Below, piece after piece: positions 4,868-51,184 of a DNA stretch of 64,000 bases. How positions within the stretch are numbered: the stretch's first letter is position 1; each line of letters opens with the position of its first letter. The DNA comes from Candidatus Falkowbacteria bacterium (GTDB lineage: Bacteria > Patescibacteriota > Patescibacteriia > CAIXNZ01), in contig CAVZGV010000003.1 of NCBI GenBank assembly GCA_963774955.1, forward strand, positions 469,695 to 533,694, given 5' to 3'. Under the pieces are notes generated by a model. That model saw nothing but the letters and a program-made list of their open reading frames with translations. It had not been told where the DNA came from and did not search any database. The translations under genes and the position numbers were made by a program.

Positions 4868-4949
4868 ATAAACAGCAGGTAAGTACCTGTGGATTAATTT
4901 TTTTAAAAATAAATATTTAATAAATATAAATTACTTAATTAAATTTTTT

Positions 4950-6098: not shown

Positions 6099-6149
6099 AA
6101 TAAAAAATTATTAATTAATATATAAAAATAATAATTAAGAAAGGGGTAT

Positions 6150-7151: not shown

Positions 7152-7192
7152 GTTAGAATTTTGACATCATTGAAATAGAACATTTACAAAGA

Positions 7193-7230
7193 GGGACTGT
7201 GTATATACATTGTCCCTCTTATGGTTTTAT
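7193..7230 (+). terminator. intrinsic terminator after 6150..7151
   Basis: AGAGGGAC-loop-GTCCCTCT followed by a T-rich stretch. Confidence 0.55.
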
Positions 7231-7277
7231 TGGTAGGTTTATTGGCAAAGCCCTGTTTGTTTGGTTGTTCTTGAAAA

Positions 7278-13500: not shown

Positions 13501-13578
13501 GGCGTCAGAATCAAGTGGGACACACCGCCGGGCAATTATTCTCAAACAGTGACTATTTCAGTAGTGGCAAATTTTTAA
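10551..13578 (+). CDS. large N-anchored/secreted protein: two Kelch-type beta-propellers (~12 blades) plus the GNF-terminated C-terminal domain; reading frame broken by a 1-nt insertion near 13455
   Basis: N-terminal hydrophobic segment. Repeated Kelch motifs (DVWSSxDGxxW ... LWLxGG ... W.xR). ORF 10551..13457 stops at ...NVFATSY*. The +1 frame 13458..13578 encodes DPVQGVDNGLTYFCHGVRIKWDTPPGNYSQTVTISVVANF, which is identical to the C-terminus of paralog 13597..16599. Confidence 0.55.
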
Positions 13579-13596
13579 AGTCTAAAAGGTAAAATC

Positions 13597-16500
13597 ATGC
13601 TAGCTAAAAAGTTTTCAATCTCCATGATTTTATATCTGACGCTGTTTTGTATAATTGTGGTCAGTTTTTTATTTTCCCATAGATTGCTAAAAGAAGTTTC
13701 AGCTGCCAATACCATGACTTGTTCCTCTACTCCGTATGTAGTAGATCCCGGAGAGGAGGTGACTATTTCAGCAGTGATTAATTTTACACCTGCTGATGTT
13801 TGGGCGGTGATTGAAAATGAGGACGGAGTGGCTGACAGCCATTATTCTCTGGACGAGGATGATGCGACTCATTATTCCAAAGTCTATACCACTTCCGGAA
13901 CGGCTAATGGACGCTATGATATCGGTATTTTTGCCACTGTTGACGGTACAGGCGAGCAGGTCTTTTGCAATCCTTCAACCGGTGCTGCCTGGATAAAAAA
14001 ATCATTGAGCGATATTAATTGGACCGGACGTTTAAGGCATAAGGTTGTAATAAATAACGGTAAACTGTGGATTTTAGGCGGTTTTGACTATGATTATCAG
14101 TCAGATGTCTGGTCATCTGCTGATGGTCAGAAATGGATACAGGTAACCAAGGAAGCTCCCTGGGGAATCCGCCGATCTGATTTTGGCGCTCTGGCTTTGA
14201 ATAATAAAATATTTGTTTTTGGCGGCTATAAACTCAATAGCAATTGGACTGTCGCCACTTTGCAAAATGATGTCTGGAGTTCAGCTGACGGCGCTCATTG
14301 GACCCGAATAAATGCCGGGGCCGATTGGTCAGCCCGTAGTTCGTTTGGTTATACTGTTTATAACAATGAACTTTGGCTGGCCGGCGGTTGTACCAGCCTT
14401 AATCCTTCGACTTTAGGTTGTGCTTCTGCCAGCGATGAGGTTTGGTCCAGCTCTGACGGCATAGACTGGACTTTGGCTACAAATAATCCTGGCTGGAGTG
14501 AACGTTCTTTAAGCAAACTTTTGGTTCATAATGATGGTAACGATGACCGATTGTTTTTAATTGGCGGGGTAGATTATCCCGGCGGTACAGCCAATAATGT
14601 CAAAGATGTTTGGTCTTCAGCTGATGGTGCTGATTGGGCAGAAAAAACTGCGGCTGCTGATTTTGAAGCCAGATACTTATTTGATGCTTTTTCTTATGAT
14701 TTTGGGGATGGTCAGAAAATTTGGCTCATGGGCGGCAGGGAAATGGACGCTGGTATTACTCAGCATAATGATATCTGGTCATCGGTTGACGGCGCTGATT
14801 GGGATCTGGAAAAAGATGATGTGGCCATTCCTGGCATCGGGGTTCAGCCAAGTAAATGGACTCATTGGACACCGCGCCGTTTTTTCCAAACTGTAATTTT
14901 CAATGCCGGTAACGGTCCTAAAGCCTGGCTTTTGGGCGGTTATGATAAAATTGTTAATCGAAATGATATTTGGACAACCACGAACGGTGTGGACTGGACT
15001 TTAACCAATGAATTTGTCGAACCGGAATTTGGCAGCAGGTTTGATACTCCGGTGGCTGTTTATAATAATAAATTATGGCTTGTTGCCGGTTTAGCCAAAG
15101 GCAAAGGATTAGGCAGAGATGTCTGGAGTTCAGCTGACGGCATTTCTTGGACCTGTGAATTTGGCAGCTATACAGCCGGAACAGAAGGTGTTGATTGCAA
15201 TCATGCTACACCCGGGTGGGTAGCTCGTTTTGATGATAAATTGCTGGTCTATGATGACGGTGACAGTGAAAAGCTTTTTATGATTGGCGGCTGTACCTGG
15301 CCCGGTCCAGGTTATGGCTCCTGTCCCAGCGGCTATGGGCTTAAAGATGTCTGGTCTTATGACGATAATGTGCCTGAAATAAATAAAATCTGGATCCAGG
15401 AAACAGCTGCCGCTGCCTGGGATGTTAGAAATTTACCGGCCTTGGCTGTTTATGATAATAAAATGTGGCTAATGGGCGGACTTAAACAAGCAACTACTTT
15501 ATTACAAGATGTTTGGTATTCAAGCGACGGAACGACCTGGACGCAGGCTAGTAATGCGCCTTGGTCTGTAAGAACAGGGCATAGTGCGGTTGTTTATGAT
15601 GATAAGCTTTGGGTCATGGGCGGGCAGACAACCGGTCCAACGCGTTTAAATGATGTTTGGTATAGTACTGATCCCATCAATTCTGGTTGGACCCAAGCGA
15701 CCAGCAGCGCTGCCTGGTCACCCCGGCTTACTTTTGGTTTGCTGAATTTTAATAATCGCATGTGGGTGGTTTCTGGTCAGCAAGACGGTACAACTTTTGC
15801 TGAATATTTGGGCACTCAAGATATTTATTGGTCACAAGACGGTGCGATTTGGAACTTGGCAACTGATACAGCTGATTTTGCCGGCCGTGATTTTTTTTCC
15901 TCAACAGTTTTTCAGGATAGAATCTGGTTGACCGGCGGTGATTCTAATGCCGGCAACAATAATGATGTCTGGGCTAGCCGTTATGCTGATTTGAATTATT
16001 ATGTTATGACGCCTTTGGATTGGAAGGTGAACATTCGAGCTCAGGTAGATCCCACTCTCAGTCTGGTTTTGTCCTCAAATGCCTGTGAACTTGGTGTTTT
16101 AACTGCGGATGCGATTCAAACTTGCGGTTATAGCGTGGCAGTCGCCACTAATGCTCAAAGCGGTTATACCGGTTATATCCGCCAAAATCATGGTTTTGAA
16201 TCAACCATAGGTCTGACTAATCACGAAATTCATAGTGAGAATGGTACTCCATTGCAAATTGAAGCCACCGGCACTTTAGTCGGAGAAAATGGTGAATATG
16301 GCGTCGGTATTTTAACTGCAGATACTACGGACTGGCCTGAATTTACAGGTGATTGCGCAGATTATGATAATCAATCAAGTACTTCATTACCGGCCAAAGC
16401 AGTAGACTGGAGCACAGCCGCTGACCCGGATGCTTATCTGGGTGATAATGTTGATAATGTGTTTGCCACATCCTCTGACCCGGTACAGGGCGTTGATAAC

Positions 16501-16599
16501 GGACTGACTTATTTTTGCCATGGCGTCAGGATCAAATGGGATACGCCACCGGGAAGTTATTCACAGACAGTGACAATTTCAGTCGTCGCCAATTTTTAA
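13597..16599 (+). CDS. paralogous large protein: double Kelch beta-propeller plus GNF-terminated C-terminal domain (intact)
   Basis: 1000 aa. Same architecture as 10551. The C-terminal ~200 aa are near-identical at nucleotide level to the upstream paralog. Confidence 0.6.
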   Translation: MLAKKFSISMILYLTLFCIIVVSFLFSHRLLKEVSAANTMTCSSTPYVVDPGEEVTISAVINFTPADVWAVIENEDGVADSHYSLDEDDATHYSKVYTTSGTANGRYDIGIFATVDGTGEQVFCNPSTGAAWIKKSLSDINWTGRLRHKVVINNGKLWILGGFDYDYQSDVWSSADGQKWIQVTKEAPWGIRRSDFGALALNNKIFVFGGYKLNSNWTVATLQNDVWSSADGAHWTRINAGADWSARSSFGYTVYNNELWLAGGCTSLNPSTLGCASASDEVWSSSDGIDWTLATNNPGWSERSLSKLLVHNDGNDDRLFLIGGVDYPGGTANNVKDVWSSADGADWAEKTAAADFEARYLFDAFSYDFGDGQKIWLMGGREMDAGITQHNDIWSSVDGADWDLEKDDVAIPGIGVQPSKWTHWTPRRFFQTVIFNAGNGPKAWLLGGYDKIVNRNDIWTTTNGVDWTLTNEFVEPEFGSRFDTPVAVYNNKLWLVAGLAKGKGLGRDVWSSADGISWTCEFGSYTAGTEGVDCNHATPGWVARFDDKLLVYDDGDSEKLFMIGGCTWPGPGYGSCPSGYGLKDVWSYDDNVPEINKIWIQETAAAAWDVRNLPALAVYDNKMWLMGGLKQATTLLQDVWYSSDGTTWTQASNAPWSVRTGHSAVVYDDKLWVMGGQTTGPTRLNDVWYSTDPINSGWTQATSSAAWSPRLTFGLLNFNNRMWVVSGQQDGTTFAEYLGTQDIYWSQDGAIWNLATDTADFAGRDFFSSTVFQDRIWLTGGDSNAGNNNDVWASRYADLNYYVMTPLDWKVNIRAQVDPTLSLVLSSNACELGVLTADAIQTCGYSVAVATNAQSGYTGYIRQNHGFESTIGLTNHEIHSENGTPLQIEATGTLVGENGEYGVGILTADTTDWPEFTGDCADYDNQSSTSLPAKAVDWSTAADPDAYLGDNVDNVFATSSDPVQGVDNGLTYFCHGVRIKWDTPPGSYSQTVTISVVANF

Positions 16600-16630
16600 A
16601 TTGAGGTAAAAAGTGGTATAATATATATTA

Positions 16631-19600
16631 ATGAAGAAGATCAAAAATAAAGGAAACTTAGTTAAAATTTCACGGTTAGAGCAGGTAAAATTGCAAATAA
16701 GCAGGGTAAATAAGCCGGTGCTAGTTTTTAGTTTTGCTTTGATTTTTGGTGTGATTATAGCTTTTAGCCTGGGGTATGTTTATTCACTATACTACAGTAA
16801 GCTTTTGGCCGGAGAAGGTATTAGAGACACCCTTAGTTATCAGGGGAAAATTGTTAATGCTGACGGCGTACCGCCGCCTGATGGTAATTATAGTATGCAA
16901 TTTAAAATCTATGATGCGCTAAGCGGAGGTAATTTATTATGGACTGAAATTTGGGATAATCAAGTGCATACAGGTCAAAGCACAAACAGTAAAGTTGCAG
17001 TCAGTCAGGGTGTGTTTACTGTTGAATTAAATTCTTTATGTCTAAACTGGGTAGGTGATTGCTCTGCCAACGGCGGTGTAACTTTTCAGCAAGACAGTTT
17101 TTACTTGCAGGTTGAGCTGGATTATGACAATAATGCTACTTTTGAAGAAATTTTTACGCCCAGAAAAAGATTTACAGCCACGCCATATTCTATGAATGCT
17201 GATAAACTTGACGGCCGTGATTCTCTTGATTTTGTCCTCAAGTCTGGGGGAACTATGACCGGTGAATTAATTGTGCCCAAAGTAACTGATAGTTCGCTGA
17301 TTGCCTATTATCAATTCAACGGAACAGCTAATAACAGCAGCTCTTATACTGATTTGGACGGTACTCTTCAAGACGGGGCAAATATCGGCTCAGACAGTCT
17401 ATTATTGGATGGTGACGCAGATTATATCTTGGTTGATGATAATGATTTGTTAAGCTTTGGTAATGGAACTATTGATACGACTTTTACTTTTTCAGCCTGG
17501 GTCAATCTGATTGATCCAACCAATAGTTCAATCATCAGCAAAGGGATTTATAACAACGGCGATGCTGAGTACAATTTTGGTACAGACTCTGACGGTAAGT
17601 TTTTTATTCATATTTTCGATGAAAGTGTAGCTGACTGCTACATTGGTCGTATGTATAGTGCTCAGGCAGTACCTACCGCCAGCTGGATAAACGTGACTGC
17701 AACTTATAGCGGTAGCGGTCTGGCCAGCGGGTTGAAACTTTATTTAAACGGGGAACTGGTAGATGACGCTGATAGTTCCGGAACCTGTTCGTATGTAGCC
17801 ATGGAAAGTTTAGCCGCTGATTTATTTTTAGGCCGTTATAATACTGAATATGCCAATGGTAAACTGGATGATATCAGTATCTTTAACCGTACCTTAACAG
17901 CAGATGAAGTCAGGTCTTTGTTCAGTACTTCCAAACAAAGATATCTTGATGTTGAAGAGATTACTACTTTATATTTGTATCTCAATGCCATAAACCCGAA
18001 TACTGAAGTATTTGACAGCGGCTACCTGTATTTTGATCCGGTTTTCAATCGGATTATGCTGAGTTCCTCGGCTTTTATACCAGATTTTATGCCCTATAAA
18101 GATAATTTTGGCAACGATCGTGACTATACTCATTTTATTGATGAAAACAAAATTTTGGCCTATGATTTTTCTGATCCAATAAACGGCGTAATTGATCTAG
18201 AAGGGAATGCGAATGGTACTGTCGGCGGTGATGCCAATTTTGCCAACAATGGTTTTATCGGTTATGGACTAGTGATGGATAATAATAATGATTATATTTC
18301 TTTCAGTGATCCTGGAATTTCCACAGCTGCGGGTACTTTTGAAATGTGGGCCAGATTAAATAATATTGCCACCTCAGAAACTGATTATCTGGCTTATTTC
18401 AGGGAATCAGGCGGAACTCAACTGGAAATTGCCAAAGAGGGAACTTCTGATTTATACACAAAAATAGGCGATTCAACTTTAATTGATACCACTTTTGATA
18501 TCCCGGATACCAATTGGCATCACTATGCTCTAACCTGGACCGGCGGTAGCTATTTTGTTTATGTGGATGGGGTTTTAGTATACGAAGGTTATTATAGTAC
18601 ATTTACGACGCCAACCACCTTTTTACTGGGCTATGGCAATACATCTGATACATCATTGAATGGAGCAATGGATAGTGTGGCTCTTTATGATGAAGTTATT
18701 ACTGATGGTGAAATTGTAAATCATGCGCAGTCATCTTTTAATACTTTGTATGTGAATGATCAGCTGAGAGCCGGCGTAGTCTCATCCAGCTTAGAAAATC
18801 TCTTGGCATTACCGGCAAATATAAATGAAAAAAATAGTAATGATCCGGTTTATTTACAGTATACCGGTAACAAACAGTTTTCTTTCAGTTTTAGCGAAGG
18901 TAAGGGACTAAATACATATAGCTATGATAATGATTATATATATGCGGCCTTAAACGGCGCGACCTGGAATAAAGGCGGTATGTTTGGTCATGGAATGAGT
19001 TTTGATGGTATTAATGATTATCTTGAAGCCAATGATGATTATAATTTAAATCCCAATACTGATGATTTTGCTATTGAATTTTGGATAAATGGAGCTGCTA
19101 CGGGTAATAATGGTAAAACTGTTCTTTCAAAACGCAGTGGCGATACAGGTTATGAAATTTATTTTGACGCCAGTTCTAATAATTTGCAATTTTTTATCGG
19201 TGATAATGAGTCGACCCCAAACACTGTTACTTCAACTGTGTCAGGCCACAACTTTTCTGACGGCAAGTGGCATCATTTTTTAGTGAGTTTTGAACGTGGC
19301 GGGTATGCTGCTATTTATAGTGACGGCGATATTTTTAATATTGGCGCTGTCGATATTTCTTCACTTACCGGCAGTATTACCAATAACGCCAATTTATTGA
19401 TAGGTAAAAATGCCAGCGGTAATTATTTCAATGGTAAATTAGATAGCATTGTTATGTATAATTTGTCAGGTCAGGATCAGTTTAATCTTTATGATGCTTT
19501 TGCCCACTCTTACACATCTACGGATTTTTTATTTGTTGACGGTAAAAATACTCCAGCGGGTATCGGCACCTTATCATTATTAAATCAGTCTCAAAACGGA

Positions 19601-20143
19601 CATGGCGCGGTTATCGGCATGAGAAGCAGTAATAATACGTCTAATTATCCTTTGGCTTTATGGAATGATAATGCTGATAGTGATATTTATAACCTAATAT
19701 ATTTTGGCAGCACAACCTTGGGCGGCGGCGGGGCTTCGGTTGAATATGGAAATTTAAAATGGGATAGCGGTAATAGCAAGTTTATGTTGAGTCAAAGTTT
19801 GGATGTTACAGGAGATTTAGCTGTCAATTCAGTTAGCACTGATGGTAATGAAAAGTTAGTCCATGATGTTATCAGACATACAGTCACTTCCGGAGAGGCA
19901 ACAGCCAATACCTTTACTGAATCATCCTGGGGCAAGGCAACTCAGGATAAAATCGTATCTCTTTCGGCGCTTACGTTGGATCTGAGTGCTGATCCTGATT
20001 TGGTAATTGCCAATGACTGGTCAGTTAATTTAATGGATTGCAATGTGGTTTATGACGGCACTGATATTACTGTGACTGAACAAAATGGTGCTACCTGGGC
20101 AGAAAATGATATTGTCACTATTTATATTGTCTATGAAAAATAA
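16631..20143 (+). CDS. giant N-terminally anchored surface protein with three LamG/concanavalin-A-like lectin domains
   Basis: Signal-anchor helix PVLVFSFALIFGVIIAFSLGYVY. Three LamG signature segments: GKLDDISIFNRTLTADEVRSLF, GAMDSVALYDEVITDGEI and GKLDSIVMYNLSGQDQFNLY. Confidence 0.6.
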   Translation: MKKIKNKGNLVKISRLEQVKLQISRVNKPVLVFSFALIFGVIIAFSLGYVYSLYYSKLLAGEGIRDTLSYQGKIVNADGVPPPDGNYSMQFKIYDALSGGNLLWTEIWDNQVHTGQSTNSKVAVSQGVFTVELNSLCLNWVGDCSANGGVTFQQDSFYLQVELDYDNNATFEEIFTPRKRFTATPYSMNADKLDGRDSLDFVLKSGGTMTGELIVPKVTDSSLIAYYQFNGTANNSSSYTDLDGTLQDGANIGSDSLLLDGDADYILVDDNDLLSFGNGTIDTTFTFSAWVNLIDPTNSSIISKGIYNNGDAEYNFGTDSDGKFFIHIFDESVADCYIGRMYSAQAVPTASWINVTATYSGSGLASGLKLYLNGELVDDADSSGTCSYVAMESLAADLFLGRYNTEYANGKLDDISIFNRTLTADEVRSLFSTSKQRYLDVEEITTLYLYLNAINPNTEVFDSGYLYFDPVFNRIMLSSSAFIPDFMPYKDNFGNDRDYTHFIDENKILAYDFSDPINGVIDLEGNANGTVGGDANFANNGFIGYGLVMDNNNDYISFSDPGISTAAGTFEMWARLNNIATSETDYLAYFRESGGTQLEIAKEGTSDLYTKIGDSTLIDTTFDIPDTNWHHYALTWTGGSYFVYVDGVLVYEGYYSTFTTPTTFLLGYGNTSDTSLNGAMDSVALYDEVITDGEIVNHAQSSFNTLYVNDQLRAGVVSSSLENLLALPANINEKNSNDPVYLQYTGNKQFSFSFSEGKGLNTYSYDNDYIYAALNGATWNKGGMFGHGMSFDGINDYLEANDDYNLNPNTDDFAIEFWINGAATGNNGKTVLSKRSGDTGYEIYFDASSNNLQFFIGDNESTPNTVTSTVSGHNFSDGKWHHFLVSFERGGYAAIYSDGDIFNIGAVDISSLTGSITNNANLLIGKNASGNYFNGKLDSIVMYNLSGQDQFNLYDAFAHSYTSTDFLFVDGKNTPAGIGTLSLLNQSQNGHGAVIGMRSSNNTSNYPLALWNDNADSDIYNLIYFGSTTLGGGGASVEYGNLKWDSGNSKFMLSQSLDVTGDLAVNSVSTDGNEKLVHDVIRHTVTSGEATANTFTESSWGKATQDKIVSLSALTLDLSADPDLVIANDWSVNLMDCNVVYDGTDITVTEQNGATWAENDIVTIYIVYEK

Positions 20144-27523: not shown

Positions 27524-28964
27524 ATGTCACTAGATGAACGCAAAGTCAGAGTGGACAAATTAAATCAAATTAAAGATTCAGGCATAAATCCTTATCCGGC
27601 CAAATTTGATAAAAAAGTCAGCTTACAAAAAGCTTTTGATTCCAAGGAGGGGACTAAGGTAAAAACTGCTGGCCGCTTGATGACCATTCGTGATATGGGT
27701 AAGCTTTGTTTTTGCCATTTAATGGACGAAAGTAAGAAAATGCAGATTGCTTTGCAGGCGGATAAAATAGGCAAGGAGAGTTACGATTGGTTTGTAAAAA
27801 ATATTGACATTGGTGATTTTATCGGTGTAGAAGGCGAGATTTTCAAAACCCATAAAGGTGAGATTTCTATTTTGGTAACAAAATATGAATTATTAGCCAA
27901 AGCGTTGCGACCCTTGCCGGAAAAATGGCATGGCTTAACTGATGAAGAATTAAAACTGCGTAAAAGATATTTGGATTTTATTTCCAATCCTGAACTCAAG
28001 GAATTATTTTACCGCCAAGCAAAGTTCTGGCAGACTATGCGCAATTTTTTGTTAGACGAAGGTTTTCTTAGAGGTTGAAACTCCGGTTTTGGAAACTACT
28101 GCCGGCGGCGCTGATGCTGAACCTTTCGTAACTCATCACAATGCCCTGGATATGGATGTTTACTTAAGAATCACTATGGGTGAATTATGGCAAAAAAGAT
28201 TGATGGTTGCCGGTTTTGAAAAAACATTTGAAATCGGACGTCAATTCCGGAATGAAGGCATGAGCAGGGAACATTTGCAGGATTATACCCAGATGGAATG
28301 TTATATGGCTTATGCTGATTATAAAGATATGATGGCCCTGATAGAAAAAATGTATAAAAAAGTCATTAAAGAAGTTTATAATACCATGGAATTTGAAATT
28401 AATGGCTTTACTGTTGATTTTAATAAGAAATGGGGAACCATTGATTATGTGGAAAAAATCCAGAAAGATTTTGATTTGGATGTAACTAAGGCGACAAAAG
28501 ACGCTATTGTTAAAAAACTTAAAGATTTAAAAGTTGATTTTGCTGCAGATTTATCAAGGGCACGCTTAATTGATATTTTATGGAAACAGGTCAGAAAGAC
28601 AATTGCCGGTCCGGCTTTTTTGGTTAATCACCCAGTTGAGGTTGCACCTTTGGCCAAACGTGATCCCAAAAATCCTGGTCGAGTTCAGGAATTTCAAATA
28701 ATCTTAGCCGGGTCAGAGATGGGCAAAGGCTATAGTGAATTAAATGATCCTGTTGATCAGGCAGAACGCTTTCAGGAACAGGCTCAGATGCGCGCAGCAG
28801 GGGATATGGAGGCGCAAATGCCTGATAATGACTTTGTAGAGGCCTTAGAGTATGGCATGCCGCCTACGGCCGGTTTTGGAGTGTCTGAACGCTTATTTTC
28901 ATTCCTTGAGAATAAAACAATCAGAGAATGCCAGATTTTTCCGTTAATGAAGCCTGAAAAGTAA
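27524..28964 (+). pseudogene. lysS: lysyl-tRNA synthetase (class II) interrupted by a +1 frameshift (1-nt insertion ~28070); possibly a sequencing error
   Basis: ORF 27524..28078 is the LysRS anticodon-binding N-terminus and ends LLDEGFLRG*. The other frame reads ...FLEVETPVLETTAGGADAEPF and continues into ORF 28089..28964, the class II catalytic core (FEIGRQFRNEG). Confidence 0.8.
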
Positions 28965-34419: not shown

Positions 34420-35400
34420 ATGGCTAATAACGATAAAACCTTAATTAGTTATATTCCAGGCTTTCTGGAGTTTTTAGAGGTGGAAAAAGGATTAGCCCAT
34501 CTTAGTGTAAAGAATTATGATCGATTTTTAAATAAATTTAAAATCTGGCTGGATAAAAATTATCACAATTTAAAGCCTGCTGATTTTACCGGCGATATTC
34601 TTTACCAATTCAGGATCTATTTATCACGTCTAGATGTGAATAATAAAACCGGCCAAAACCTTAAAAAATCAACTCAAAATTACTATTTAATCGCTTTACG
34701 CAATTTTTTAGCCTATTTGATTGAAAAGGATATAAATACCCTACCTCCTAATAAAGTTAAGCTGGCTAAGGATAAATCACAGGATAGAGTCGTAAAATTT
34801 TTAAGCCTGGAACAGTTGAAAAGGCTTTTAGCCGGACCTGAAACTAAAGATATAAGAGGTTTAAGGGATCGGGCTATTTTGGAAACACTTTTTAGTACGG
34901 GTTTACGCATTGCTGAATTAGTCGCCCTAAATCGCGAGCAATTCAATTTAAAGGTTATTTCCAATACTAAATTAGATTCCTTAGAATTAACGATTGTCGG
35001 CAAAGGCAGTCATCCCCGCCCGGTGTATTTTTCTCGTCGCTGTCTTGATTGGTTGATTAGATATTTGAATGCGCGTAAGGACATGGATAAGCCATTATTT
35101 GCCGGCCATGGACCAAATTCCAGTTCGACCGAAGAAAGCCGTTTAACTCCGAGGGCAATTGAGAATTTACTAGGTAAATACAGCAAAATAGCCGGCTTGC
35201 CATTTATGGCCACGCCGCATACTTTAAGGCATACCTATGCTACTGATTTATTGAACCAGGGTGCTGATTTAAGGACAGTGCAGGAATTTTTAGGCCATAA
35301 GAATATAATGACCACACAAATATACACGCATGTTACCAACAAGAGATTGAAAGATCTGCATCAGAAATTTCATAGCGGCAAGGATTTAAATAATGATTGA
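34420..35400 (+). CDS. tyrosine site-specific recombinase (XerC/XerD family)
   Basis: Catalytic residues LRHTYATDLLNQGADLRTVQEFLGHKNIMTTQIYTHV. SAM-like N-terminal domain. Confidence 0.8.
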   Translation: MANNDKTLISYIPGFLEFLEVEKGLAHLSVKNYDRFLNKFKIWLDKNYHNLKPADFTGDILYQFRIYLSRLDVNNKTGQNLKKSTQNYYLIALRNFLAYLIEKDINTLPPNKVKLAKDKSQDRVVKFLSLEQLKRLLAGPETKDIRGLRDRAILETLFSTGLRIAELVALNREQFNLKVISNTKLDSLELTIVGKGSHPRPVYFSRRCLDWLIRYLNARKDMDKPLFAGHGPNSSSTEESRLTPRAIENLLGKYSKIAGLPFMATPHTLRHTYATDLLNQGADLRTVQEFLGHKNIMTTQIYTHVTNKRLKDLHQKFHSGKDLNND

Positions 35401-35947
35401 AATTATAATGGATAAAAGTACAGAATCATTATTAAATATTTTTTATTCAAATTCCCCGTTGAATATAGATTATCAGGCAATTGATGAATTAGAATATTTA
35501 ATAGATGAACATTTAATCGTGGTTACCTTAACGCAATTATGTAATGTCAGAAAGTTGCATGAAATTATTGATAAAATAAATAGCGGAAATATAAAAGCCA
35601 TTGATTATCAAGGCGGCGGCATAAAACATATGGCACTTAAAAAACTGGGCGAAGATTTACTTTTAAATCTTAATAAAAAGGCCAAAATTGAAAGTCTATT
35701 TAATAATCGGTACCCGGATGTGATTTCCTTAGATTTAAAGGTTATTATTGAATGCGGCGATACTGATCCTAATAAAATCTTAGAGTATTTTAATTCCGGT
35801 GTGGAAAGTGTGATTATACTCCCCTATCCCAATTCCGAAGAAGTGAATTATTATGAATTTAGCTATAAAGACTTGAAAGAAGTACAAGAATATATTAAAA
35901 ATAGTTATTTTAATGATAAAATTAAGCAGATAATAAACAGAAGATAA
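35393..35947 (+). CDS. hypothetical protein, translationally coupled to the recombinase (ATGA overlap)
   Basis: ORF only. No recognisable motif. Very AT-rich. Confidence 0.35.
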   Translation: MIEIIMDKSTESLLNIFYSNSPLNIDYQAIDELEYLIDEHLIVVTLTQLCNVRKLHEIIDKINSGNIKAIDYQGGGIKHMALKKLGEDLLLNLNKKAKIESLFNNRYPDVISLDLKVIIECGDTDPNKILEYFNSGVESVIILPYPNSEEVNYYEFSYKDLKEVQEYIKNSYFNDKIKQIINRR

Positions 35948-36079
35948 CATGTTATTAATGACTAAAATAGCTGTTATTGTGCGACTCATACACTTAAACA
36001 CAGACAAGCTATCTAAGGACTCCTCTATCCAAAAAAAAGAGACTATATATAGCCTCTTTTTTGTTTTATAGAATAAAAT

Positions 36080-37177
36080 TTAATTACCACCGCCTGATGC
36101 TTTGCATTGATTAAAAAACTTCATTGCTTTTTGACCATAAGCTGCAGCTTTAGCTCCCCCACCATTATAGCGGGCAAATGCAGTTTGATAGTCTGAACCA
36201 TTAAATTTGCTTTTCCATAGCTTTAAGGATGTTTCAATATTCTTTTTGACACTTAAAGCCATTCTGGGCGTGAAACATTCTCCGGAAAACTTACGACTTA
36301 CCACAGTTGCATTGTTATTGCAGGTTTCCCAATATTTATAGCCTTTGGGAAAGAAAGTTAATTGACCCAATCCAATGCCATGGGAGTAGCGCCAATCTAA
36401 CCCTAAATCTTCAGTATTTTGAATAGGTTCTTTGGGGCATTTGGTATCACCTCCATATTGTCCTTTCATTTTTCTGTATGCTTCAGTTGCGCTGGAACTG
36501 ATATCATGTCCTATTGCATTAGGTTTACCAGCAGATTCCATTTTAAATTTGGTCACAATAACGCACGGGTCAATTCCTAATTGTTTGGCAATTTCCTTGC
36601 CTAATTTTAAAATTTCATCACTAGTCATGTTAGATTGATCAATATCTTCTCCCATGCTTTCCATCATAAGGTTTACTAATTCAGGCGGTACATATGAGAT
36701 GCCCAATAGTTTTTGAATTTGAGGTGTTTTTAATTCTTTGATGCCAACAAAAGAAAGAAAGATATAGCTAAATAGAATTATCCCCAAACCAATTACACCA
36801 TGGGTAATATAATCCTTGGCATTTTGAATAAGTTTTTTGTCTCCACCTGAAATAGCCCATAAAGCTCCTGCAAAGATCATGATCGCTAAAATAATAGGAA
36901 TAATAATATAGAGTGCCATTTTGTATATGTTGAAAATATAATCACCGATATCCCTTGCCTTTATATAACCAAAAATTGGAACTTGTAATTCAATGGTACC
37001 TTCATCTGCGGCTGCTTGTTCTGCTAAATCCGGATCAATATTTGAAAAACCTATGGATGCAGGAGCTTCTTCTGGAAGTTCAGCTTTAACTATAACTGGC
37101 AAAAAACAAATAATTACAAAGATGGCAAAGCTAAGTATCATTAAATATTTTTTTCTATTGTAATTTAATTTTTTCAT
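36080..37177 (-). CDS. membrane-hairpin-anchored lytic transglycosylase (signal peptide, conserved two-TM VirB2/TrbC-like hairpin, SLT lysozyme-like domain)
   Basis: LQVPIFGY motif and hairpin ALYIIIPIILAIMIFAGALWAISGG...ITHGVIGLGIILFSYIFLSFVGIKEL. SLT motifs MESAGKPNAIGH ... GIGLGQL. Confidence 0.6.
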   Translation of the reverse strand: MKKLNYNRKKYLMILSFAIFVIICFLPVIVKAELPEEAPASIGFSNIDPDLAEQAAADEGTIELQVPIFGYIKARDIGDYIFNIYKMALYIIIPIILAIMIFAGALWAISGGDKKLIQNAKDYITHGVIGLGIILFSYIFLSFVGIKELKTPQIQKLLGISYVPPELVNLMMESMGEDIDQSNMTSDEILKLGKEIAKQLGIDPCVIVTKFKMESAGKPNAIGHDISSSATEAYRKMKGQYGGDTKCPKEPIQNTEDLGLDWRYSHGIGLGQLTFFPKGYKYWETCNNNATVVSRKFSGECFTPRMALSVKKNIETSLKLWKSKFNGSDYQTAFARYNGGGAKAAAYGQKAMKFFNQCKASGGGN

Positions 37178-37185
37178 AAATTATT

Positions 37186-38286
37186 TTATTTGGCGCAAGG
37201 ACCGAGCCATTCAAAATGCATATTATCGCATTTGCTCTTATAATCCCCTCCCCAGCGAAAGCCAGGTGTCGATTTGAAGGCATTTATCACCGCTGTCGGA
37301 ATGTTTGGTTTACAGTTACATTTGCTTCGGCTGGCATTGTCACAGGCGCCGCATTCCCAGGGGCTGATATCAAGAGCAATGCCAAAAGAATGAAAACTGC
37401 GGTTTGTTGCTGACGGGCCATGTCCAGTATTAACCATGCGCCAATTAAAAGTACCGTTTATACTGACATTTTTGCCGCAGGTTAATTTTTGGCCTGTTGG
37501 TATTTTACTGCACGCTTGTTTATAGGCATCAGCTGCTAATTGATGAACTTTTAAAGTCCCGTTTAAACCCGGACAAGGCACACTAACTAATTTGCTTTGT
37601 ACTACACTGCTCGAATTGCCAAAGGTGCTATAATAACAGGCTTGGCCCTGTGAACCAATAGTACCACCCGAAATTTCTGAATTGTCAGTAGGCACCGCTT
37701 CTTCCAAATCGATCAGTTTAAATTCCTCTATTTTTTGGGCAGCTATATATTCTATGGTCGGTTCTTTTAACTCTTTAATCCCCACTATTGATAATAAAAC
37801 ATAACTAAATATAACTATGCCCAAACCTATAAATCCTTGGATTATTTGCGAAATGGCTTTTTTCTTTTGTGATTCATTAAAACCGGAAGACATCCAGAGC
37901 ATGCCCCCATACATAACAACAATAATTAATAAAGGCACTATAATATAAAGAGCTGAGCTGTAAATAGTTAATATGTATTGAGCCATGCCTGAAACCTTGG
38001 TAAAAGTGAAAATCGGAATATTTAATTCAATTTCGTTGGGTTCTATTGTTCCTGTTGGCTTTTGGACACCTGGGCAGCAGATCAAACCATTGCATAAGGT
38101 ATTATCTGGATCAGGAGTTTCTCCATCCCCACATTGGTATTCGCAATGGCCAATGGTGTCAGGATATTTTTCTAGGCAGGTTTTAGCCTGACATAACTGT
38201 ATATTTACACAAAAAAATAGTATCAAAAAAAAGATAGCAGAAAATAGTTGTATTGTTTTTTGTTTTTTAAATTTTTTTATTGACAT
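37186..38286 (-). CDS. membrane-hairpin-anchored peptidase M15 (VanY-like) cell-wall hydrolase with a Cys-rich N-terminal ectodomain
   Basis: Same hairpin (ALYIIVPLLIIVVMYGGMLWMSSG...IQGFIGLGIVIFSYVLLSIVGIKEL). M15 motifs SFHSFGIALDI and DNMHFEW. Confidence 0.6.
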   Translation of the reverse strand: MSIKKFKKQKTIQLFSAIFFLILFFCVNIQLCQAKTCLEKYPDTIGHCEYQCGDGETPDPDNTLCNGLICCPGVQKPTGTIEPNEIELNIPIFTFTKVSGMAQYILTIYSSALYIIVPLLIIVVMYGGMLWMSSGFNESQKKKAISQIIQGFIGLGIVIFSYVLLSIVGIKELKEPTIEYIAAQKIEEFKLIDLEEAVPTDNSEISGGTIGSQGQACYYSTFGNSSSVVQSKLVSVPCPGLNGTLKVHQLAADAYKQACSKIPTGQKLTCGKNVSINGTFNWRMVNTGHGPSATNRSFHSFGIALDISPWECGACDNASRSKCNCKPNIPTAVINAFKSTPGFRWGGDYKSKCDNMHFEWLGPCAK

Positions 38287-38300
38287 CTAATTAGATAATT

Positions 38301-39281
38301 TTAATGCCCGCTTGGTGAAAAGTGCCAAGGTTCGCTAACCTTTCCACCTTTGATTTCGGCTTTTAAGCCGGCAGCATTAAAACATTTTTTTAAGATTTGA
38401 TCAGAGTTTGCCCATGTCCCTACCCTGCCACCGTCAATTCTGACATCAAAAGCAGCACCTGTCCCATGATTAGAACAACATGGATTGGCTGCCCAACCTG
38501 GATCTTTAGTTTTAAAAGTTGTATATTGTGCTGCTGCTGAGCGCCAGCCGCTTCCAGTTATAGTATGACCAGTTGTGGATTTGACACATTCTGCCGCTTT
38601 TATAAAAGCAGCTAAACCAGCTTCTGAGGCAAAAAGACCACCACCAGCACCATATTTCCCCATGGGTACAATTTTCATACCTGGAGGTGCATTATTTCCC
38701 AAGGCTTTGCATTTTAGACCAATATCTTCACGATAACCCTTATAACCTCTGGCAGGATATTGATCACAAATTGCCTGATATGGATTAGCTCCAAATTCAC
38801 CCGAAGATGCGCTGGTTGTTTGGCCGCTTGTATCAGAAGCATCAAACTCAAGCTCCTTTAAGTCAAATTCTGGGATCTCTTCGCCTTTTATAGTTTGAAG
38901 TCCGGGTAAATTTAATGTTGTTAAGCCGATAAATGACAAAATAGCATAGCTCAAGGCAGCCAGTACAAGTCCTAAAATAGCGCTGGTAATATAAGTTTTT
39001 GCTGTTTTAATTGCCGGCGGATAGGCGCCTGAAAAGACCCACATAAAGCCGCCCCACATAATCATAACTATAGCTATAGGTACAATTAAGAATAAGGCAT
39101 ACTCAAAAATTTTGCCTATATATTCGGCTATATTTGTGGCTTTAGTATAACCAAATATCGGCACCTGGAGATCAAGGTTTGGTTGATCGGCAGAAACAAC
39201 AGGGACTGAAATTAAAAAGTAAAAAACCAGGCAGCTGCAGATAACCAATTTAAATATTAATTTTAGATATATATTTTTCAT
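38301..39281 (-). CDS. membrane-hairpin-anchored peptidase M15 (VanY-like) cell-wall hydrolase
   Basis: LQVPIFGY plus hairpin (ALFLIVPIAIVMIMWGGFMWVFSG...ITSAILGLVLAALSYAILSFIGL). M15 motifs SNHGTGAAFDV and EPWHF. Confidence 0.6.
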   Translation of the reverse strand: MKNIYLKLIFKLVICSCLVFYFLISVPVVSADQPNLDLQVPIFGYTKATNIAEYIGKIFEYALFLIVPIAIVMIMWGGFMWVFSGAYPPAIKTAKTYITSAILGLVLAALSYAILSFIGLTTLNLPGLQTIKGEEIPEFDLKELEFDASDTSGQTTSASSGEFGANPYQAICDQYPARGYKGYREDIGLKCKALGNNAPPGMKIVPMGKYGAGGGLFASEAGLAAFIKAAECVKSTTGHTITGSGWRSAAAQYTTFKTKDPGWAANPCCSNHGTGAAFDVRIDGGRVGTWANSDQILKKCFNAAGLKAEIKGGKVSEPWHFSPSGH

Positions 39282-39724
39282 TAGGTAATTTTATTAAAAA
39301 ATATTTGTTTCAACCAGCGGGTAGATATAAAAAACAGCAAGGCAAAAATCAGATTGGTTGGTTCGATTTTTTGAGGATTCAGAATAAAGCCAATCAGTAA
39401 GATAAGGACACTGCCGCCGTAAATTATAATATCGACCATGAAAAAGTCAAAGCTGGTAATAATAATCTCAAATTGAGTTCTCCCCCGTTCCCTTTCCCGG
39501 CTAAGCCGAAAATAATTTGTGGTTAAAGCCAAAAATAAGGCTAATAATAAAATCGTCGCCGGAAACCAAAATACAATAATTTGGCCGACGGTATCAATTA
39601 GATTGGGGAAAAAATACCAGACTATAATTACCGTGCCGATTATCAGCCAGACCAAATATACACTTACCAAATTTTGGATAAATTTTTTAAATTTTTCATA
39701 GCCGGTGGATTCTGGATAAGACAT
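39281..39724 (-). CDS. small polytopic membrane protein, first gene of the hydrolase operon
   Basis: 147 aa, 3-4 TM helices. There is a 1-nt overlap with the downstream gene. Confidence 0.4.
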   Translation of the reverse strand: MSYPESTGYEKFKKFIQNLVSVYLVWLIIGTVIIVWYFFPNLIDTVGQIIVFWFPATILLLALFLALTTNYFRLSRERERGRTQFEIIITSFDFFMVDIIIYGGSVLILLIGFILNPQKIEPTNLIFALLFFISTRWLKQIFFNKIT

Positions 39725-39769
39725 TCAATTTAAATTAAAAGTCAGAAATAAAATCTATAGTAATAATAA

Positions 39770-41014
39770 TTATGGCAGGTATTCCAGTGGATTTACCGGT
39801 AAGCCGTTTAAGCGCACTTCAAAATGCAAATGAGGGCCTATGGTCATGCTGCCTGCGCCTTTGGTGCCGGGCATACCCCCGGTTAAGCCAATAACATCGC
39901 CTTTTTTAACATAACTGTCCTCTCTTACATAGATAGCGCTGACATGGCCGTAAACTGTCGATAAATCATTGTCATGAATCAAAATGATATAACTATATCC
40001 CAGACCTGCGTCTTTGGCTCTGGCAACATAGCCATCAGCCGGTGCGCTGATTTGTGAACCTTGTTTGGCTCTGATATCGATAGCCGGATGTTCATAAACG
40101 TAGCGAAAAGGATATTCCGGATCATGAAAATATGCCGTTATATAATGGCCTTCAACCGGCCAATCCAGAGTATTCGATGCCGTGGTCCCTGAATTTTTTA
40201 GTTTTTGAATTTTATCTTTAAGCTGGATCTGTAGATTTTTAATGTCATCATCAATTTGACTTTGTTTTTGTCGAGAATCTGCCAGCATTTTCTGAAATTG
40301 GATTTGAGAAGTTTTTGTTTCCATTAACACCATTTCCTTGGACAATTGGTCATCTTTAAGTTTAGACTGCTTTTCGCTAAGCTGGATTTTTAAACTTTCC
40401 AAATCAAGCATTTGTCTTTCTTTGTCAGCTTTGCGGACTTCAAGGCTCAGTTTTAAATCCTGTAATCTGTCCACGGCTTTTTGAATGTCGGCTTGAACAG
40501 ATTCCAAGTAATTTATCTGGTTGAAAAATTCTGAAAATGAATTATTTAAAATTAAAATTTCCAAATATGATTTCTGATCGTTTTGGGCTATTTGCCTGAT
40601 AAATTCCACCAAACTTGTTTTTTGGCTTTCAATTTCATTTTGTTCACTCGAGATCTGATATTCCATGGCTTGGATTTCCAGTTTGGTTTTATCTACCTGC
40701 ATTTGCAAGGTTTTCGCGTCCAGTTCGACTTTGAGTATCTGATTATCCAATAATCCCAGTTGATCTTTTAGATCAGCGGACTGTCCTTTGTATTCCTCAA
40801 TTTTTTGGGCGTATTCGGCCGCGGCTTTTTTGAGGTTTTCGATGCTAATTTTGTTGGCTTCAATTTTTTGATTAATTGCCTCTAATTCCGGATTATTTTG
40901 TTCCAGCATAAGATCTGTATTTGGTTGTTCATCTTGAGCAATTGAAAAACCAGCGCATAAAATAAATACGCCTAAAATTAGGAAAAAAATTGTTTTCCCG
41001 AGATAATGTTTCAT
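39770..41014 (-). CDS. EnvC-like secreted coiled-coil protein with C-terminal M23 (LytM) peptidase domain
   Basis: Signal peptide. Long Q/K/E-rich coiled coil. M23 motifs HPAIDI and GPHLHFEV. Confidence 0.75.
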   Translation of the reverse strand: MKHYLGKTIFFLILGVFILCAGFSIAQDEQPNTDLMLEQNNPELEAINQKIEANKISIENLKKAAAEYAQKIEEYKGQSADLKDQLGLLDNQILKVELDAKTLQMQVDKTKLEIQAMEYQISSEQNEIESQKTSLVEFIRQIAQNDQKSYLEILILNNSFSEFFNQINYLESVQADIQKAVDRLQDLKLSLEVRKADKERQMLDLESLKIQLSEKQSKLKDDQLSKEMVLMETKTSQIQFQKMLADSRQKQSQIDDDIKNLQIQLKDKIQKLKNSGTTASNTLDWPVEGHYITAYFHDPEYPFRYVYEHPAIDIRAKQGSQISAPADGYVARAKDAGLGYSYIILIHDNDLSTVYGHVSAIYVREDSYVKKGDVIGLTGGMPGTKGAGSMTIGPHLHFEVRLNGLPVNPLEYLP

Positions 41015-48559: not shown

Positions 48560-51184
48560 ATGTTCAACCCCAATCGTTTAACCACTAAGTCACAAGAGGC
48601 TTTGCGTAATGCCCAGCAAATTGCCTTGGATAACCAAAATCAGCAGGTCGATGCCCTGCATCTTTTGGCGTCCATGCTGCTTCAGGAAGAAAGTCTGGTA
48701 GTGACCGTAGTCAAAAAATTGGAAGTTGATGTGACTGAATTAAAAAATGAGATTTTCAAGGCTATTGAAAAAACTCCAAAATTTAAGGGCGAGATAAATT
48801 TAACCCAAATGTTTTTAACCGAAGATCTGGCCCGCATTTTGGCTGGTTCTGAAAAAGAGGCCATGGACCTCAAGGATGAATATATTTCCACTGAACATTT
48901 ACTACTCTCGATGTTAAATACCAAAAGTAAAGTTAAGACCCTTTTGGAATCGTATGGTATTCAGTATGACAATGTCTTGCGCTTACTCGCCCAATTGCGT
49001 GGTTCAACTAGGATTACTGATCCTGAACCGGAATCAAAATTTCAGGTTTTGGAAAAATACGCTCAAAATTTAACCGAACAAGCGCGCCAGGAAAAACTTG
49101 ATCCTGTTATCGGTCGTGATGCGGAAATTCGCCGTGTTATGCAGGTTCTTTCCCGCCGTACAAAAAATAATCCGGTTTTAATCGGTGAAGCCGGTGTTGG
49201 TAAAACAGCCATTGCTGAAGGTTTGGCGCAAAGAATTGTAGCCGGAGATGTGCCTGAAACTTTAAAGAATAAAGAAGTAATTGCCTTAGATTTAGGTTCC
49301 CTAATTGCCGGTACAAAATTTCGAGGTGAATTTGAAGATCGACTAAAAGCTGTTTTAAAGGAAGTTGAAAATTCCAACGGCCAAATAATTTTATTTATTG
49401 ATGAATTGCATACTGTTGTCGGCGCCGGTGCAATTGAAGGTTCTATGGATGCTTCCAATATGTTAAAGCCGGCTTTGGCTCGCGGCAAACTTCATGCAGT
49501 CGGAGCCACCACATTAAAGGAATATCAAAAATATATTGAAAAAGATCCGGCCCTGGAAAGACGTTTTCAACCGGTTTTTGTGCTGGAACCTTCAATTGAA
49601 GATACAATCGCTATTTTACGCGGTATTAAAGAAAAATATGAAGTTCATCATGGTGTGAGAATTACTGACTCTGCCATTGTAGCGGCTGCAGAATTTTCTC
49701 AAAGATATATTACTGATCGCTTTTTGCCGGATAAAGCAGTTGATTTGATTGATGAAGCCACTTCTGCTCTGCGCATGGAAATAGATTCCATGCCCGATGA
49801 ATTGGATACCATGAAACGTAAAGTTATACAATTTGAAATAGAAAAAGCGGCCTTAAAAAAAGAATCCGATAAAGATAGTAAACAAAGATTGAAAGATTTG
49901 GATAAGGAACTGAATGACCTGAAGGAAAAATCCAACCAATTGGAATTGCACTGGAAAAGTGAAAAAGAAATTATTACTAAAATTCGTGAAGCAAAAAAAC
50001 AAATTGACGTTTTGAAAATTGAAGCTGATATTTTGGAAAGAAAGTCTGAATTGCAAAAGGTGGCGGAAATTCGTTACGGTAAAATTCCTGCCGTGGAAAA
50101 AGAAATTAAATCTCTGGAAAAGAAGCTGACTAATGTCCAAAAAGAACATAAAATTCTTAAAGAAGAAGTGACCGAGGAAGATATTGCCGAGGTTGTTTCC
50201 CGCTGGACAGGCATTCCTGTTTCTAAGATGTTACAGTCTGAAATGGAAAAATTAGTTCATGCCGAGGATGAATTAAAAAAGCGTGTAGTTGGCCAGGAAG
50301 AAGCCATTAACAGCTGTTGCTAATGCTATTCAGACGTTCACGAGCCGGTATCTCCGAGGAAAATAAACCAATTGGTTCTTTTATTTTTTTGGGTCCAACT
50401 GGCGTAGGTAAAACTGAATTGGCCAAAGCTTTAGCTGAATTTATGTTTAATGATGAAAATTCCATTATCAGAGTTGATATGTCAGAATACATGGAAAAGC
50501 ATGCTGTGTCGAAGATGCATCGGCTCCCCTCCAGGTTATATTGGCTATGAAGAAGGCGGACAGTTGACTGAACAAGTGCGACGACGCCCCTACTCCGTAG
50601 TTTTGTTTGATGAAATTGAAAAAGCGCATCCTGAAGTCTTTAATATTCTTTTACAACTCTTGGATGATGGCCGTTTAACAGATGCCAAAGGCCGGGTGGT
50701 AAATTTTAAAAATACTATTATTATCATGACTTCCAATTTGGGCAATCAGCTCTTGAAAGAAGTTTCCTTGGGTTTTGAAGACAAGTCGCTAAAGGGAGAA
50801 CAAAAGTTTAATGAAGATAAAATGAAGGAAGGTGTATATGAGGCTCTCAAGGCGCAGTTTAAGCCTGAATTTATCAACCGCGTAGATGAAATTATTATTT
50901 TCCATCCGCTGGGCAAAAAAGAAATTGAAAAAATTATTGATTTACAGCTGGAAATAGTAAAAAAGCGTTTGTCTGACAAGAAAATCAAACTTGAATTTAC
51001 CGAATCATTGGAAAAATATTTGGCTGAAAAAGGCTTTGATCCGCAGTTTGGTGCCAGACCGCTTAAACGAGTGATTCAAAGTGAAATTCTTGATGATCTG
51101 GCTCTGCAGATAATTGAAAATAAAATTCAAGAAGGTGCAAAAGTTAAAGTAGATGTAAGTCAGGGTAAAGTTACATTCAAGTAA
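48560..51184 (+). pseudogene. clpB: ClpB disaggregase (AAA+ chaperone) reading frame broken by three separate 1-nt insertions (~50312, ~50332, ~50512); likely sequencing errors
   Basis: ORF1 carries the N-domain, AAA1 ([13 protein letters not shown]) and the M-domain. ORF 50317..50550 carries the AAA2 Walker A ([15 protein letters not shown]). ORF 50450..51184 carries [14 protein letters not shown]...FDEIEKAH... Each frame shift is exactly +1. Confidence 0.85.

Follow-up and report, generated by a model that had tools for sequence, protein, structure and literature searches.

Few machines have been shown to be indispensable to Patescibacteria living as epibionts; type IV secretion systems (T4SS) with their arrays of VirB2-like pilins belong to these. 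VirB4 is found in 2,417 of 3,035 Patescibacteria assemblies, VirB2-like arrays of 2–11 genes are reported in 383 assemblies, and a recognisable VirB1 is absent from most genomes with VirB2-like genes (PMC12102498). In Southlakia epibionticum, short stand-alone proteins of the family PF18895 constitute an essential pilin array within the T4SS cluster (PMC10633639), and the essential hydrolases beside virB4 are separate proteins (PMC10633639; PMC12102498). Here, we describe an operon in which pilin-family hairpins and wall hydrolases are parts of the same polypeptides. It lies in a 64,000-nt stretch of Candidatus Falkowbacteria contig CAVZGV010000003.1 (assembly GCA_963774955.1, positions 469,695–533,694), below called the window, and contains three consecutive minus-strand genes, p1, p2, and p3, each encoding a PF18895-type hairpin joined to a different peptidoglycan hydrolase domain. 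The 2025 census took every PF18895 match as a "VirB2" and did not report length or extra domains (PMC12102498), so that pilin–hydrolase fusions would have entered it as ordinary pilins. Our literature search, with most subscription journals outside its reach, yielded no description of such fusions; as far as we found, the parts are known (PF18895 hairpins, T4SS hydrolases, pilin arrays of Patescibacteria), while the fusion, the breadth of its enzymatic payloads, and a shuffled locus away from a T4SS are undescribed.

According to the list of open reading frames (ORFs) of the window, the minus-strand genes are transcribed in the order coiled-coil M23 peptidase, TM147, p3, p2, p1. The p3 protein (38301–39281, 326 aa) consists of a signal peptide, the LQVPIF motif, a PF18895 hairpin (38892–39176, residues 36–130), a disordered linker, and an M15B catalytic domain (38307–38669, about residues 205–325). 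The p2 protein (37186–38286, 366 aa) has a signal peptide, a Cys-rich mini-domain, a PF18895 hairpin (37747–38031, residues 86–180), a linker, and a Cys-rich Peptidase_M15_4 domain with its catalytic core at 37207–37407 (residues 294–360). The p1 protein (36080–37177, 365 aa; in the public gene model the start is 12 codons later, giving 353 aa) has a signal peptide, an acidic N-terminal segment, a PF18895-type hairpin (36710–36994, residues 62–156), a linker, and a divergent, GH23-type SLT domain (36098–36622, about residues 186–360). Upstream of these genes on the same strand are TM147 (39281–39724), a polytopic membrane protein of 147 aa with about four transmembrane (TM) helices by hydropathy, and the coiled-coil M23 peptidase (39770–41014, 414 aa), the first gene of the conserved block. 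The stop codon of TM147 overlaps the start codon of p3 by 1 nt (TAATG), and TM147 is translationally coupled to p3, the first hairpin gene; the other spacers are 45 nt between the M23 gene and TM147, 14 nt between p3 and p2, and 8 nt between p2 and p1. The ORF positions, the 1-nt overlap, and the 45-nt gap given in the initial annotation, which had been made from the same DNA, were all reproduced exactly.

The hairpin modules of p1–p3 align without gaps over 95 residues with 42–46% identity and 27 invariant columns. Each protein has a hydrophobic N-terminal signal sequence with an AxA-like cleavage site (in p3, the cleavage is probably between VSA and DQ) and two more hydrophobic helices, as seen from hydropathy; LQVPIF, a short beta motif ahead of the hairpin, is common to all three. 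The shared module is real and far beyond chance: when the window, translated in six frames, is searched with a hidden Markov model (HMM) derived from 84 relatives, exactly these three hairpins are recovered, with E-values of 1e-33 to 1e-36, and nothing else. The common signal peptide, motif, and two-helix hairpin noticed in the initial annotation are thereby supported. In the AlphaFold2 models, the two helices span residues 77–109 and 114–143 in p1, with a predicted local distance difference test (pLDDT) of 80–90, and 51–83 and 88–117 in p3, where residues 119–164, a tether of about 45 residues, have pLDDT below 50.

The hairpins belong to a named family, PF18895 (T4SS_pilin, VirB2-like), hence the suspected likeness to VirB2/TrbC is borne out, whereas the suggestion that there is no named family is incorrect for the hairpin. 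The PF18895 scores are 30.9 bits for p3, 27.4 bits for p2, and 22.2 bits for p1, with the gathering cutoff of 26.6; the p1 hairpin is thus under the cutoff, yet it is 42–46% identical to the hairpins of p2 and p3. The family layout, that is, a signal peptide followed by two hydrophobic helices with a short polar loop, is found in p1–p3 by hydropathy and, for p1 and p3, also in the AlphaFold2 models, and 81 of the 84 closest relatives match PF18895. Weak matches are seen to TrbC/VirB2 (PF04956) and to a pilin-like family of mycoplasma integrative and conjugative elements. PF04956, proposed earlier for comparison, stays below its cutoff (best score of the window proteins 15.3 bits against 27.9; E ≤ 1e-3 in only five of the 84 relatives).

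No other part of these proteins is as well conserved as the hairpin. The mean column identity over 15 hairpins is 60%, with the polar loop (G-G-D...AK..I) and the motifs on either side counted in, and conservation extends for about 10 residues beyond helix 2 (GITELKPPSAEYIEPE) and then ends, the payloads being unalignable. By this measure of the sequences, the hairpin appears conserved more than anchoring would need; and since the hairpin, its loop, and its flanks outconserve the unalignable rest, it probably makes specific contacts and is not a mere anchor. Between its signal peptide and its hairpin, the p2 protein has, in addition, about 40 residues that form a Cys-rich mini-domain (38062–38184, about residues 35–75; C-x7-G-x-C-x3-C...LC-x5-CC) with no match among known families; its motif is seen again in the majority consensus derived from the 84 closest relatives.

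Among the collected proteins there are also "polypilins" (P0033, P0035, P0036, P0099, P0107), in which one polypeptide comprises 6 to 16 tandem PF18895-like hairpins; P0033, for instance, has 552 aa, six hairpins with linkers of about 15–20 residues, and a single signal peptide. Such covalently chained hairpins suggest side-by-side packing in a membrane or a filament.

The assignments of the three enzyme domains made in the initial annotation (SLT in p1, M15 in p2 and p3) hold, and the catalytic residues are present on alignment. The p2 protein scores 50.8 bits with Peptidase_M15_4 (PF13539; cutoff 25), and its motifs SFHSFGIALD and HFEW align to 2vo9 and 6akv (L-Ala-D-Glu peptidases Ply500 and LysB4). 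The p3 protein is an M15B (LdcB/VanY-like) zinc peptidase of the LAS fold, with the H-x6-D...H triad in SxHxxGxAxD and ExWH; its closest solved relatives are LdcB/DacB. The p1 domain has a lysozyme-like fold; across 20 homologues, E214-S215, HGIGLGQ at 266–272, and Y337-N-G are either invariant or conserved, and the ES motif pairs in alignment with the catalytic ES of g-type lysozyme. PF01464 does not match p1 itself at E < 0.1 and matches nine of its 20 homologues (best E-value 1.9e-11). SLT is predicted to cut the glycan strand, whereas the predicted targets of M15_4 and M15B are both in the stem peptide, namely its L-Ala-D-Glu bond and its terminal residue, respectively. The earlier proposal that several wall-cutting activities share one anchor stands, with three types of hydrolases on the PF18895 hairpin.

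The M23 protein comprises an N-terminal hydrophobic segment (residues 8–26), some 250 residues of coiled coil, and the M23 domain (308–409); it scores 83.1 bits with PF01551 and has SMC-like coiled-coil matches. Both zinc motifs are intact (HPAID at 309–313, HLH at 395–397), so the protein is an active-type peptidase; it is predicted to be secreted or membrane-anchored. Its orthologues, with 58–69% identity, occupy the same position in eight related loci. The name "EnvC-like" in the initial annotation is apt for the architecture of a coiled coil plus M23 and does not fit otherwise, given 41 bits with the EnvC model NF008644 (cutoff 270) and the retained zinc ligands. The TM147 protein is kept at the head of the array in seven of nine syntenic loci, with 37–78% identity, and is absent in L009 and L011. 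Its only family match, to DUF2304, is sub-threshold, no similarity to PrgI or VirB3 was seen, and a homologue search gave only three proteins.

The operon belongs to a Parcubacteria-type bacterium in the Candidate Phyla Radiation (CPR); it is chromosomal and vertically inherited. The nearest named relatives are metagenome-assembled genomes of Candidatus Parcubacteria and Buchananbacteria. The window was compared with eight syntenic loci (L001, L003/L004, L005, L006, and L009–L012; nine loci with the window), and a search with the three-hairpin alignment recovered four genome loci. The order ykuD, wecG, gltX, M23, (TM147), hairpin genes, ftsQ, serS is common to the window and the eight other loci, and the flanking proteins of the latter are 47–82% identical to their window counterparts. 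L009 (CAZHFK010000022.1) and L010 (CAYNWH010000004.1) are labelled "uncultured Gammaproteobacteria"; both contain the complete CPR-type locus with 48–70% identity to the window proteins, and the labels are probably wrong.

The payloads at this fixed site vary, with one to five hairpin genes and eight payload families (M15B, M15_4, SLT, M23, Amidase_2, NlpC/P60, C39_2, and 3D). In gene order, the window has M15B, M15_4, and SLT; L001 has M23, Amidase_2, and M15B; L003 has M23, NlpC/P60, C39_2, and M15_4; L005 has NlpC/P60 only; L006 has M15_4, C39_2, and an unknown domain; L009 has NlpC/P60, an SLT-like, and an M15_4-like domain; L010 has C39_2, an unknown domain, and C39_2; L011 has a homologue of the L009 NlpC/P60 protein (assigned by homology), 3D, and an M15_4-like domain; and L012 has 3D, M15B, 3D, 3D, and Amidase_2. 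The hairpins do not group by payload. The hairpin of the L001 M23 protein is 71% identical to that of the L003 M15_4 protein, and the hairpin of the L003 C39_2 protein is 74% identical to that of the L001 M15B protein, while the two M15B hairpins of the window and L001 share only 45%. This shows that enzyme domains unrelated to one another have been exchanged on a conserved N-terminal module, with payload swapping at one chromosomal locus.

Two further kinds of proteins were seen in these arrays, both with no detectable hairpin and no Pfam match: a family of about 390 aa that ends the array in L001 (8745–9920) and in L012 (7096–8265), with 32% identity between the two, and a 1271-aa protein in the L003 array (3679–7494).

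Beyond this locus, the three-hairpin profile retrieved 484 proteins from 1.84 billion cluster representatives (HMMER, E ≤ 1e-10). In the 84 best single-hairpin matches, the domains beside the hairpin are Peptidase_C39_2 (12), M15_4 (10), 3D (8), M23 (8), NlpC/P60 (7), VanY (6), M15 (4), Amidase_2 (3), SLT (2), and glucosaminidase (1). A C-terminal extension of at least 120 residues (median 209) is present in 99 of the 107 single-hairpin proteins gathered. With so many extended members and with domains that are almost all wall hydrolases, this hairpin subtype is mainly an enzyme carrier. The fusion, for which the initial annotation knew of no named family, is thus widespread among public proteins, and the search for the hairpin signature suggested there did find it elsewhere, fused mostly to wall hydrolases.

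In other CPR lineages, some of these fusions adjoin T4SS genes. In L007 and L013/L014, a hairpin–SLT gene, a more distant member of the p1 SLT subfamily, is one gene downstream of virB4, in a cluster that also has prgI and a TraC-like gene; the L007 cluster is near dnaA. The gene immediately after virB4 in L008 encodes a related SLT protein, in which the hairpin HMM has no match. The T4SS association of hairpin–SLT genes is real and is seen in a minority of cases.

Another recurrent setting of hairpin–SLT genes in other CPR lineages, often together with hairpin–M15 genes, is upstream of radA and a convergent recG (L019, L020, L024, L025, L027); L008 has the same radA/recG block with the virB4 cluster ahead of it, and in L025 a DsbA-like thioredoxin is beside the hydrolases.

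Our preferred interpretation, to which we assign a probability of roughly 0.4, is that the array encodes a membrane-tethered, co-assembling toolkit for opening the wall, linked to a pilin/T4SS apparatus. Given a cleavable signal peptide and two TM helices, both ends of each mature protein are predicted to be outside the cell (N-out/C-out), as had been proposed in the initial annotation for the N-terminal ectodomain and the C-terminal enzyme. The signal peptide would be cleaved and the hairpin would sit in the membrane with each enzyme on a disordered tether of about 40–50 residues at the outer membrane face, the three enzymes cutting three different bonds of the wall. The hairpin would act as a shared docking or co-assembly module beyond a passive anchor, with other hairpins, TM147, or pilin-handling machinery as candidate partners, and would bring glycan cutting and peptide cutting, which complement each other, together at a single place in the membrane, most likely where a pilin/T4SS-type apparatus crosses the wall. 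The array might then supply a VirB1-like wall-opening function in a fused and exchangeable form, and its action may reach the wall of an attached partner cell. The hairpin–SLT fusions one gene from virB4 in L007 and L013/L014 support such a role.

Several observations weigh against this interpretation. In the 64-kb window we find no VirB4-sized ATPase, VirB6, VirB3, PrgI, relaxase, or phage structural gene; the absence of T4SS genes is the relevant part here. About a dozen other metagenomic hairpin–SLT loci are not beside virB4. A search of the hairpin profile against PDB sequences returned rhodopsin and other transmembrane noise and no solved VirB2/TraA pilin, and thus gave no support for homology to solved pilins; in structure, the hairpin is similar both to a conjugative pilin and to many helical hairpins of a generic kind. 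We know of no PF18895 member for which pilus formation has been shown. Finally, the genes around the array are those of wall synthesis and division (mreB, mreC, pbp2, ftsQ, ykuD, wecG), which fits a role in the cell's own wall.

The last point belongs to the main and serious rival, which we regard as somewhat unlikely: p1–p3 would be housekeeping autolysins that, together with the coiled-coil M23 peptidase, remodel the cell's own wall during growth and division, with the hairpin being merely a membrane anchor. It draws on the conserved chromosomal position among mreBC–pbp2, ftsQ, ykuD, and wecG, on the fact that coiled-coil hydrolases (EnvC, PcsB, CwlO) are typical of division, and on LdcB/DacB, the solved relatives of p3, being Gram-positive housekeeping trimming enzymes; the tethers are short enough for reaching the own wall, and the majority of related loci are not beside virB4. 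However, housekeeping enzymes are normally orthologous, whereas here the gene number (1–5) and the enzyme families differ among genomes with flanking genes of 50–80% identity, and payloads are swapped on near-identical hairpins. The hairpin is conserved well above what anchoring needs, and homologous fusions occur inside T4SS clusters. Ordinary housekeeping carboxypeptidases at syntenic positions in relatives had been named in the initial annotation as the possible outcome that would speak against a specialised module; synteny of the position is indeed seen, but different genomes do not have orthologous genes there.

A less probable explanation, and in our opinion an unlikely one, is that the proteins are weapons or feeding tools directed at the wall of a host or a competitor; in its boldest form, the hairpin polymerises like VirB2, and the enzymes decorate a T4SS pilus. 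A variant of the same low standing has the enzymes released by cleavage after the conserved GITELKxP motif, with payloads that track the wall chemistry of the host. The pattern of a constant N-terminal module with variable C-terminal enzymes is that of polymorphic toxins, and the combined specificities would dismantle peptidoglycan fully. By analogy with F-pilin display, a VirB2-type filament of such N-out/C-out proteins would expose the payload on its outside. It has been proposed that host envelopes are compromised by lytic enzymes of Patescibacteria (PMC11665869). On the other hand, the gaps of 8–14 nt hold no immunity genes between the hydrolase genes, and we therefore keep the polymorphic toxin as an analogy only. 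Besides the lack of T4SS genes in the window and of a PF18895 protein with proven pilus formation, a domain of 200 residues per subunit would crowd a pilus, and a host with peptidoglycan has to be presupposed for the lineage.

A more specific possibility, which we consider quite doubtful, is that the PF18895 hairpin retains the polymerising ability of VirB2; together with ordinary pilins, the proteins would then build a T4SS-type filament, or a ring in the membrane, with exchangeable wall-cutting enzymes on its outer surface. If true, this would be an "enzymatic pilus" or drill with which an ultra-small epibiont opens the wall of its partner, the payloads being tuned to the partner's wall chemistry.

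The weakest explanation, a cryptic mobile module (conjugative, integrative, or for phage entry or lysis) brought by the adjacent tyrosine recombinase, is suggested by the Xer-type gene (34420–35400, plus strand; clear Phage_integrase and SAM-like domains) and its translationally coupled partner adjoining the operon, by the likeness of M15 and M23 domains to phage endolysin domains, and by Xer being 69–76% identical to the copies of two relatives, above the flanking housekeeping genes, but it is very improbable and largely refuted by the shared site, flanked by gltX and ftsQ/serS in at least nine genomes of which six lack the recombinase, by the lack of VirB4, relaxase, and phage structural genes in the window, and by the absence of a relative in 2.9 million viral contigs. 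The GC content of the operon is 0.35–0.39, like that of its flanks; no att-like repeats were found around the locus, only short AT-rich chance matches; PHROGs matches are confined to the M15 and M23 catalytic domains; and the 8–14 nt gaps leave no space for integron attC sites. With the fixed locus and Xer in only three of nine loci (window, L001, L005), this leaves the recombinase, conjugation, and phage-module angle of the initial annotation unsupported, and neither a GC deviation nor att-like repeats around the recombinase, both suggested there as checks, is seen.

An integron, i.e., a recombinase beside a cassette array, was considered and rejected, as the gaps are too small for attC and the recombinase is convergent and absent from six of the nine loci. 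As for the recombinase itself, it scores 219.6 bits with TIGR02225 (cutoff 329.6) and 211.9 bits with TIGR02224 (cutoff 335). It is 76% identical to its counterpart in L001 (12168–13148) and 69% in L005 (11835–12809), compared with 48–66% for the flanking housekeeping proteins, and its partner ORF differs each time (a 184-aa protein in the window, a GIY-YIG protein in L001). Xer and its partner (34420–35947, plus strand, in the window) may thus be a small independent insertion at the junction of the array and ftsQ. The cumulative GC skew climbs to about 36 kb and is flat further on, which coincides with the switch of gene orientation beside Xer.

Between Xer with its partner and the 3' end of the operon lies an AT-rich convergent intergenic region of 132 nt (35948–36079). 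It holds a strand-neutral, terminator-like palindrome at 36033–36062 (AAAAAAGAGACTATATATAGCCTCTTTTTT; inverted repeat I3, 95% complementary) with runs of A and T on either side, which looks like a terminator that would work in either direction and close the operon. The promoter scan gave 25 sites against 23.6 expected from shuffled sequences, that is, no excess.

The housekeeping genes of the window include mreB, mreC, pbp2, greA, several aminoacyl-tRNA synthetases, ftsQ, WecG–NUDIX, the YkuD L,D-transpeptidase, clpB, and priA. Two of the genes are split. A class II aminoacyl-tRNA synthetase (OB anticodon domain and tRNA-synt_2 core; 27524–28078 and 28089–28964, plus strand) is frameshifted near 28075, with relatives having one gene of 479 aa; the split reflects an indel in the assembly, or else the gene is a pseudogene. 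ClpB is represented by ORFs of 587 aa and 244 aa (48560–50323 and 50450–51184, plus strand) with several stops between them, and is a single 873-aa gene in L005. As both genes are split, indel errors in the assembly are suggested. Farther away, at 10551–20143 (plus strand), three giant surface-type proteins are encoded one after another, two with Kelch repeats and about 1000 aa and one of 1170 aa that is Laminin_G_3/ConA-like; the GC content there is 0.43–0.46 compared with 0.35–0.39 elsewhere, and the three proteins may be adhesins.

Several consequences follow for the view of Patescibacteria pilins. In a large subfamily, the "pilin" makes up the N-terminal part of wall hydrolases of many catalytic kinds; enzymes are included whenever "pilin genes" are counted, so that such numbers should be treated with caution, and the fusions offer a way to account for the missing VirB1. 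The swapping of payloads at one fixed locus is a clear case of modular evolution in a very small genome and may report host-wall specificity. The soluble catalytic domains, which can be expressed and assayed, provide a concrete handle. Should the proteins turn out to be housekeeping autolysins, the finding would define how autolysins are anchored in these bacteria.

The array has partial counterparts in several known systems. LdcB/DacB (M15B) and CwlK-type (M15) enzymes of Firmicutes have the folds and zinc ligands of p3 and p2 and are tethered at the outer membrane face; they are, however, single conserved orthologues with lipid or single-helix anchors and do not form a shuffled array. Like EnvC (with FtsEX), PcsB, and CwlO, the M23 protein joins a long coiled coil to a hydrolase domain at the C-terminus, and its gene is near division and elongation genes; EnvC has a degenerate LytM domain and works via FtsEX, whereas the window protein keeps HxxxD and HxH, and no ftsEX is adjacent. 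Polymorphic toxins and antibacterial T4SS effectors, such as the X-Tfe peptidoglycan hydrolases of Xanthomonas, likewise combine a constant targeting module with interchangeable wall-degrading domains, and their repertoire varies among close relatives; here, in contrast, there are no immunity genes, the N-terminal module is a membrane hairpin rather than a secretion signal recognised by VirD4, and delivery elsewhere is hypothetical. The VirB1 analogues of monoderms (PrgK of pCF10, TraG of pIP501, CwlT of ICEBs1; also SEML1_0006/0007) are membrane-anchored, cut both glycan and peptide, and open the wall for secretion; they have several catalytic domains per polypeptide and an ordinary N-terminal TM segment, whereas the present array has one activity per protein on a pilin-family hairpin, in a variable set that is not beside virB4 in this lineage. 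Bona fide VirB2/TrbC differ from p1–p3 in that the latter carry C-terminal enzyme folds of about 200 residues, with no VirB4, VirB6, or VirB3 encoded in the window. The VirB2-like pilin arrays of Patescibacteria (SEML1_0014–0019, Wang et al., 2023, PMC10633639; Quinonero-Coronel et al., 2025, PMC12102498) share with p1–p3 the family PF18895, the signal peptide with two helices, the tandem divergent paralogues (2–11 genes reported), and the CPR hosts. Those pilins have about 125–140 aa, end after helix 2, and are inside a T4SS cluster; in the array described here, each hairpin bears a wall hydrolase of about 200 residues, in a wall/division neighbourhood with an M23 peptidase.

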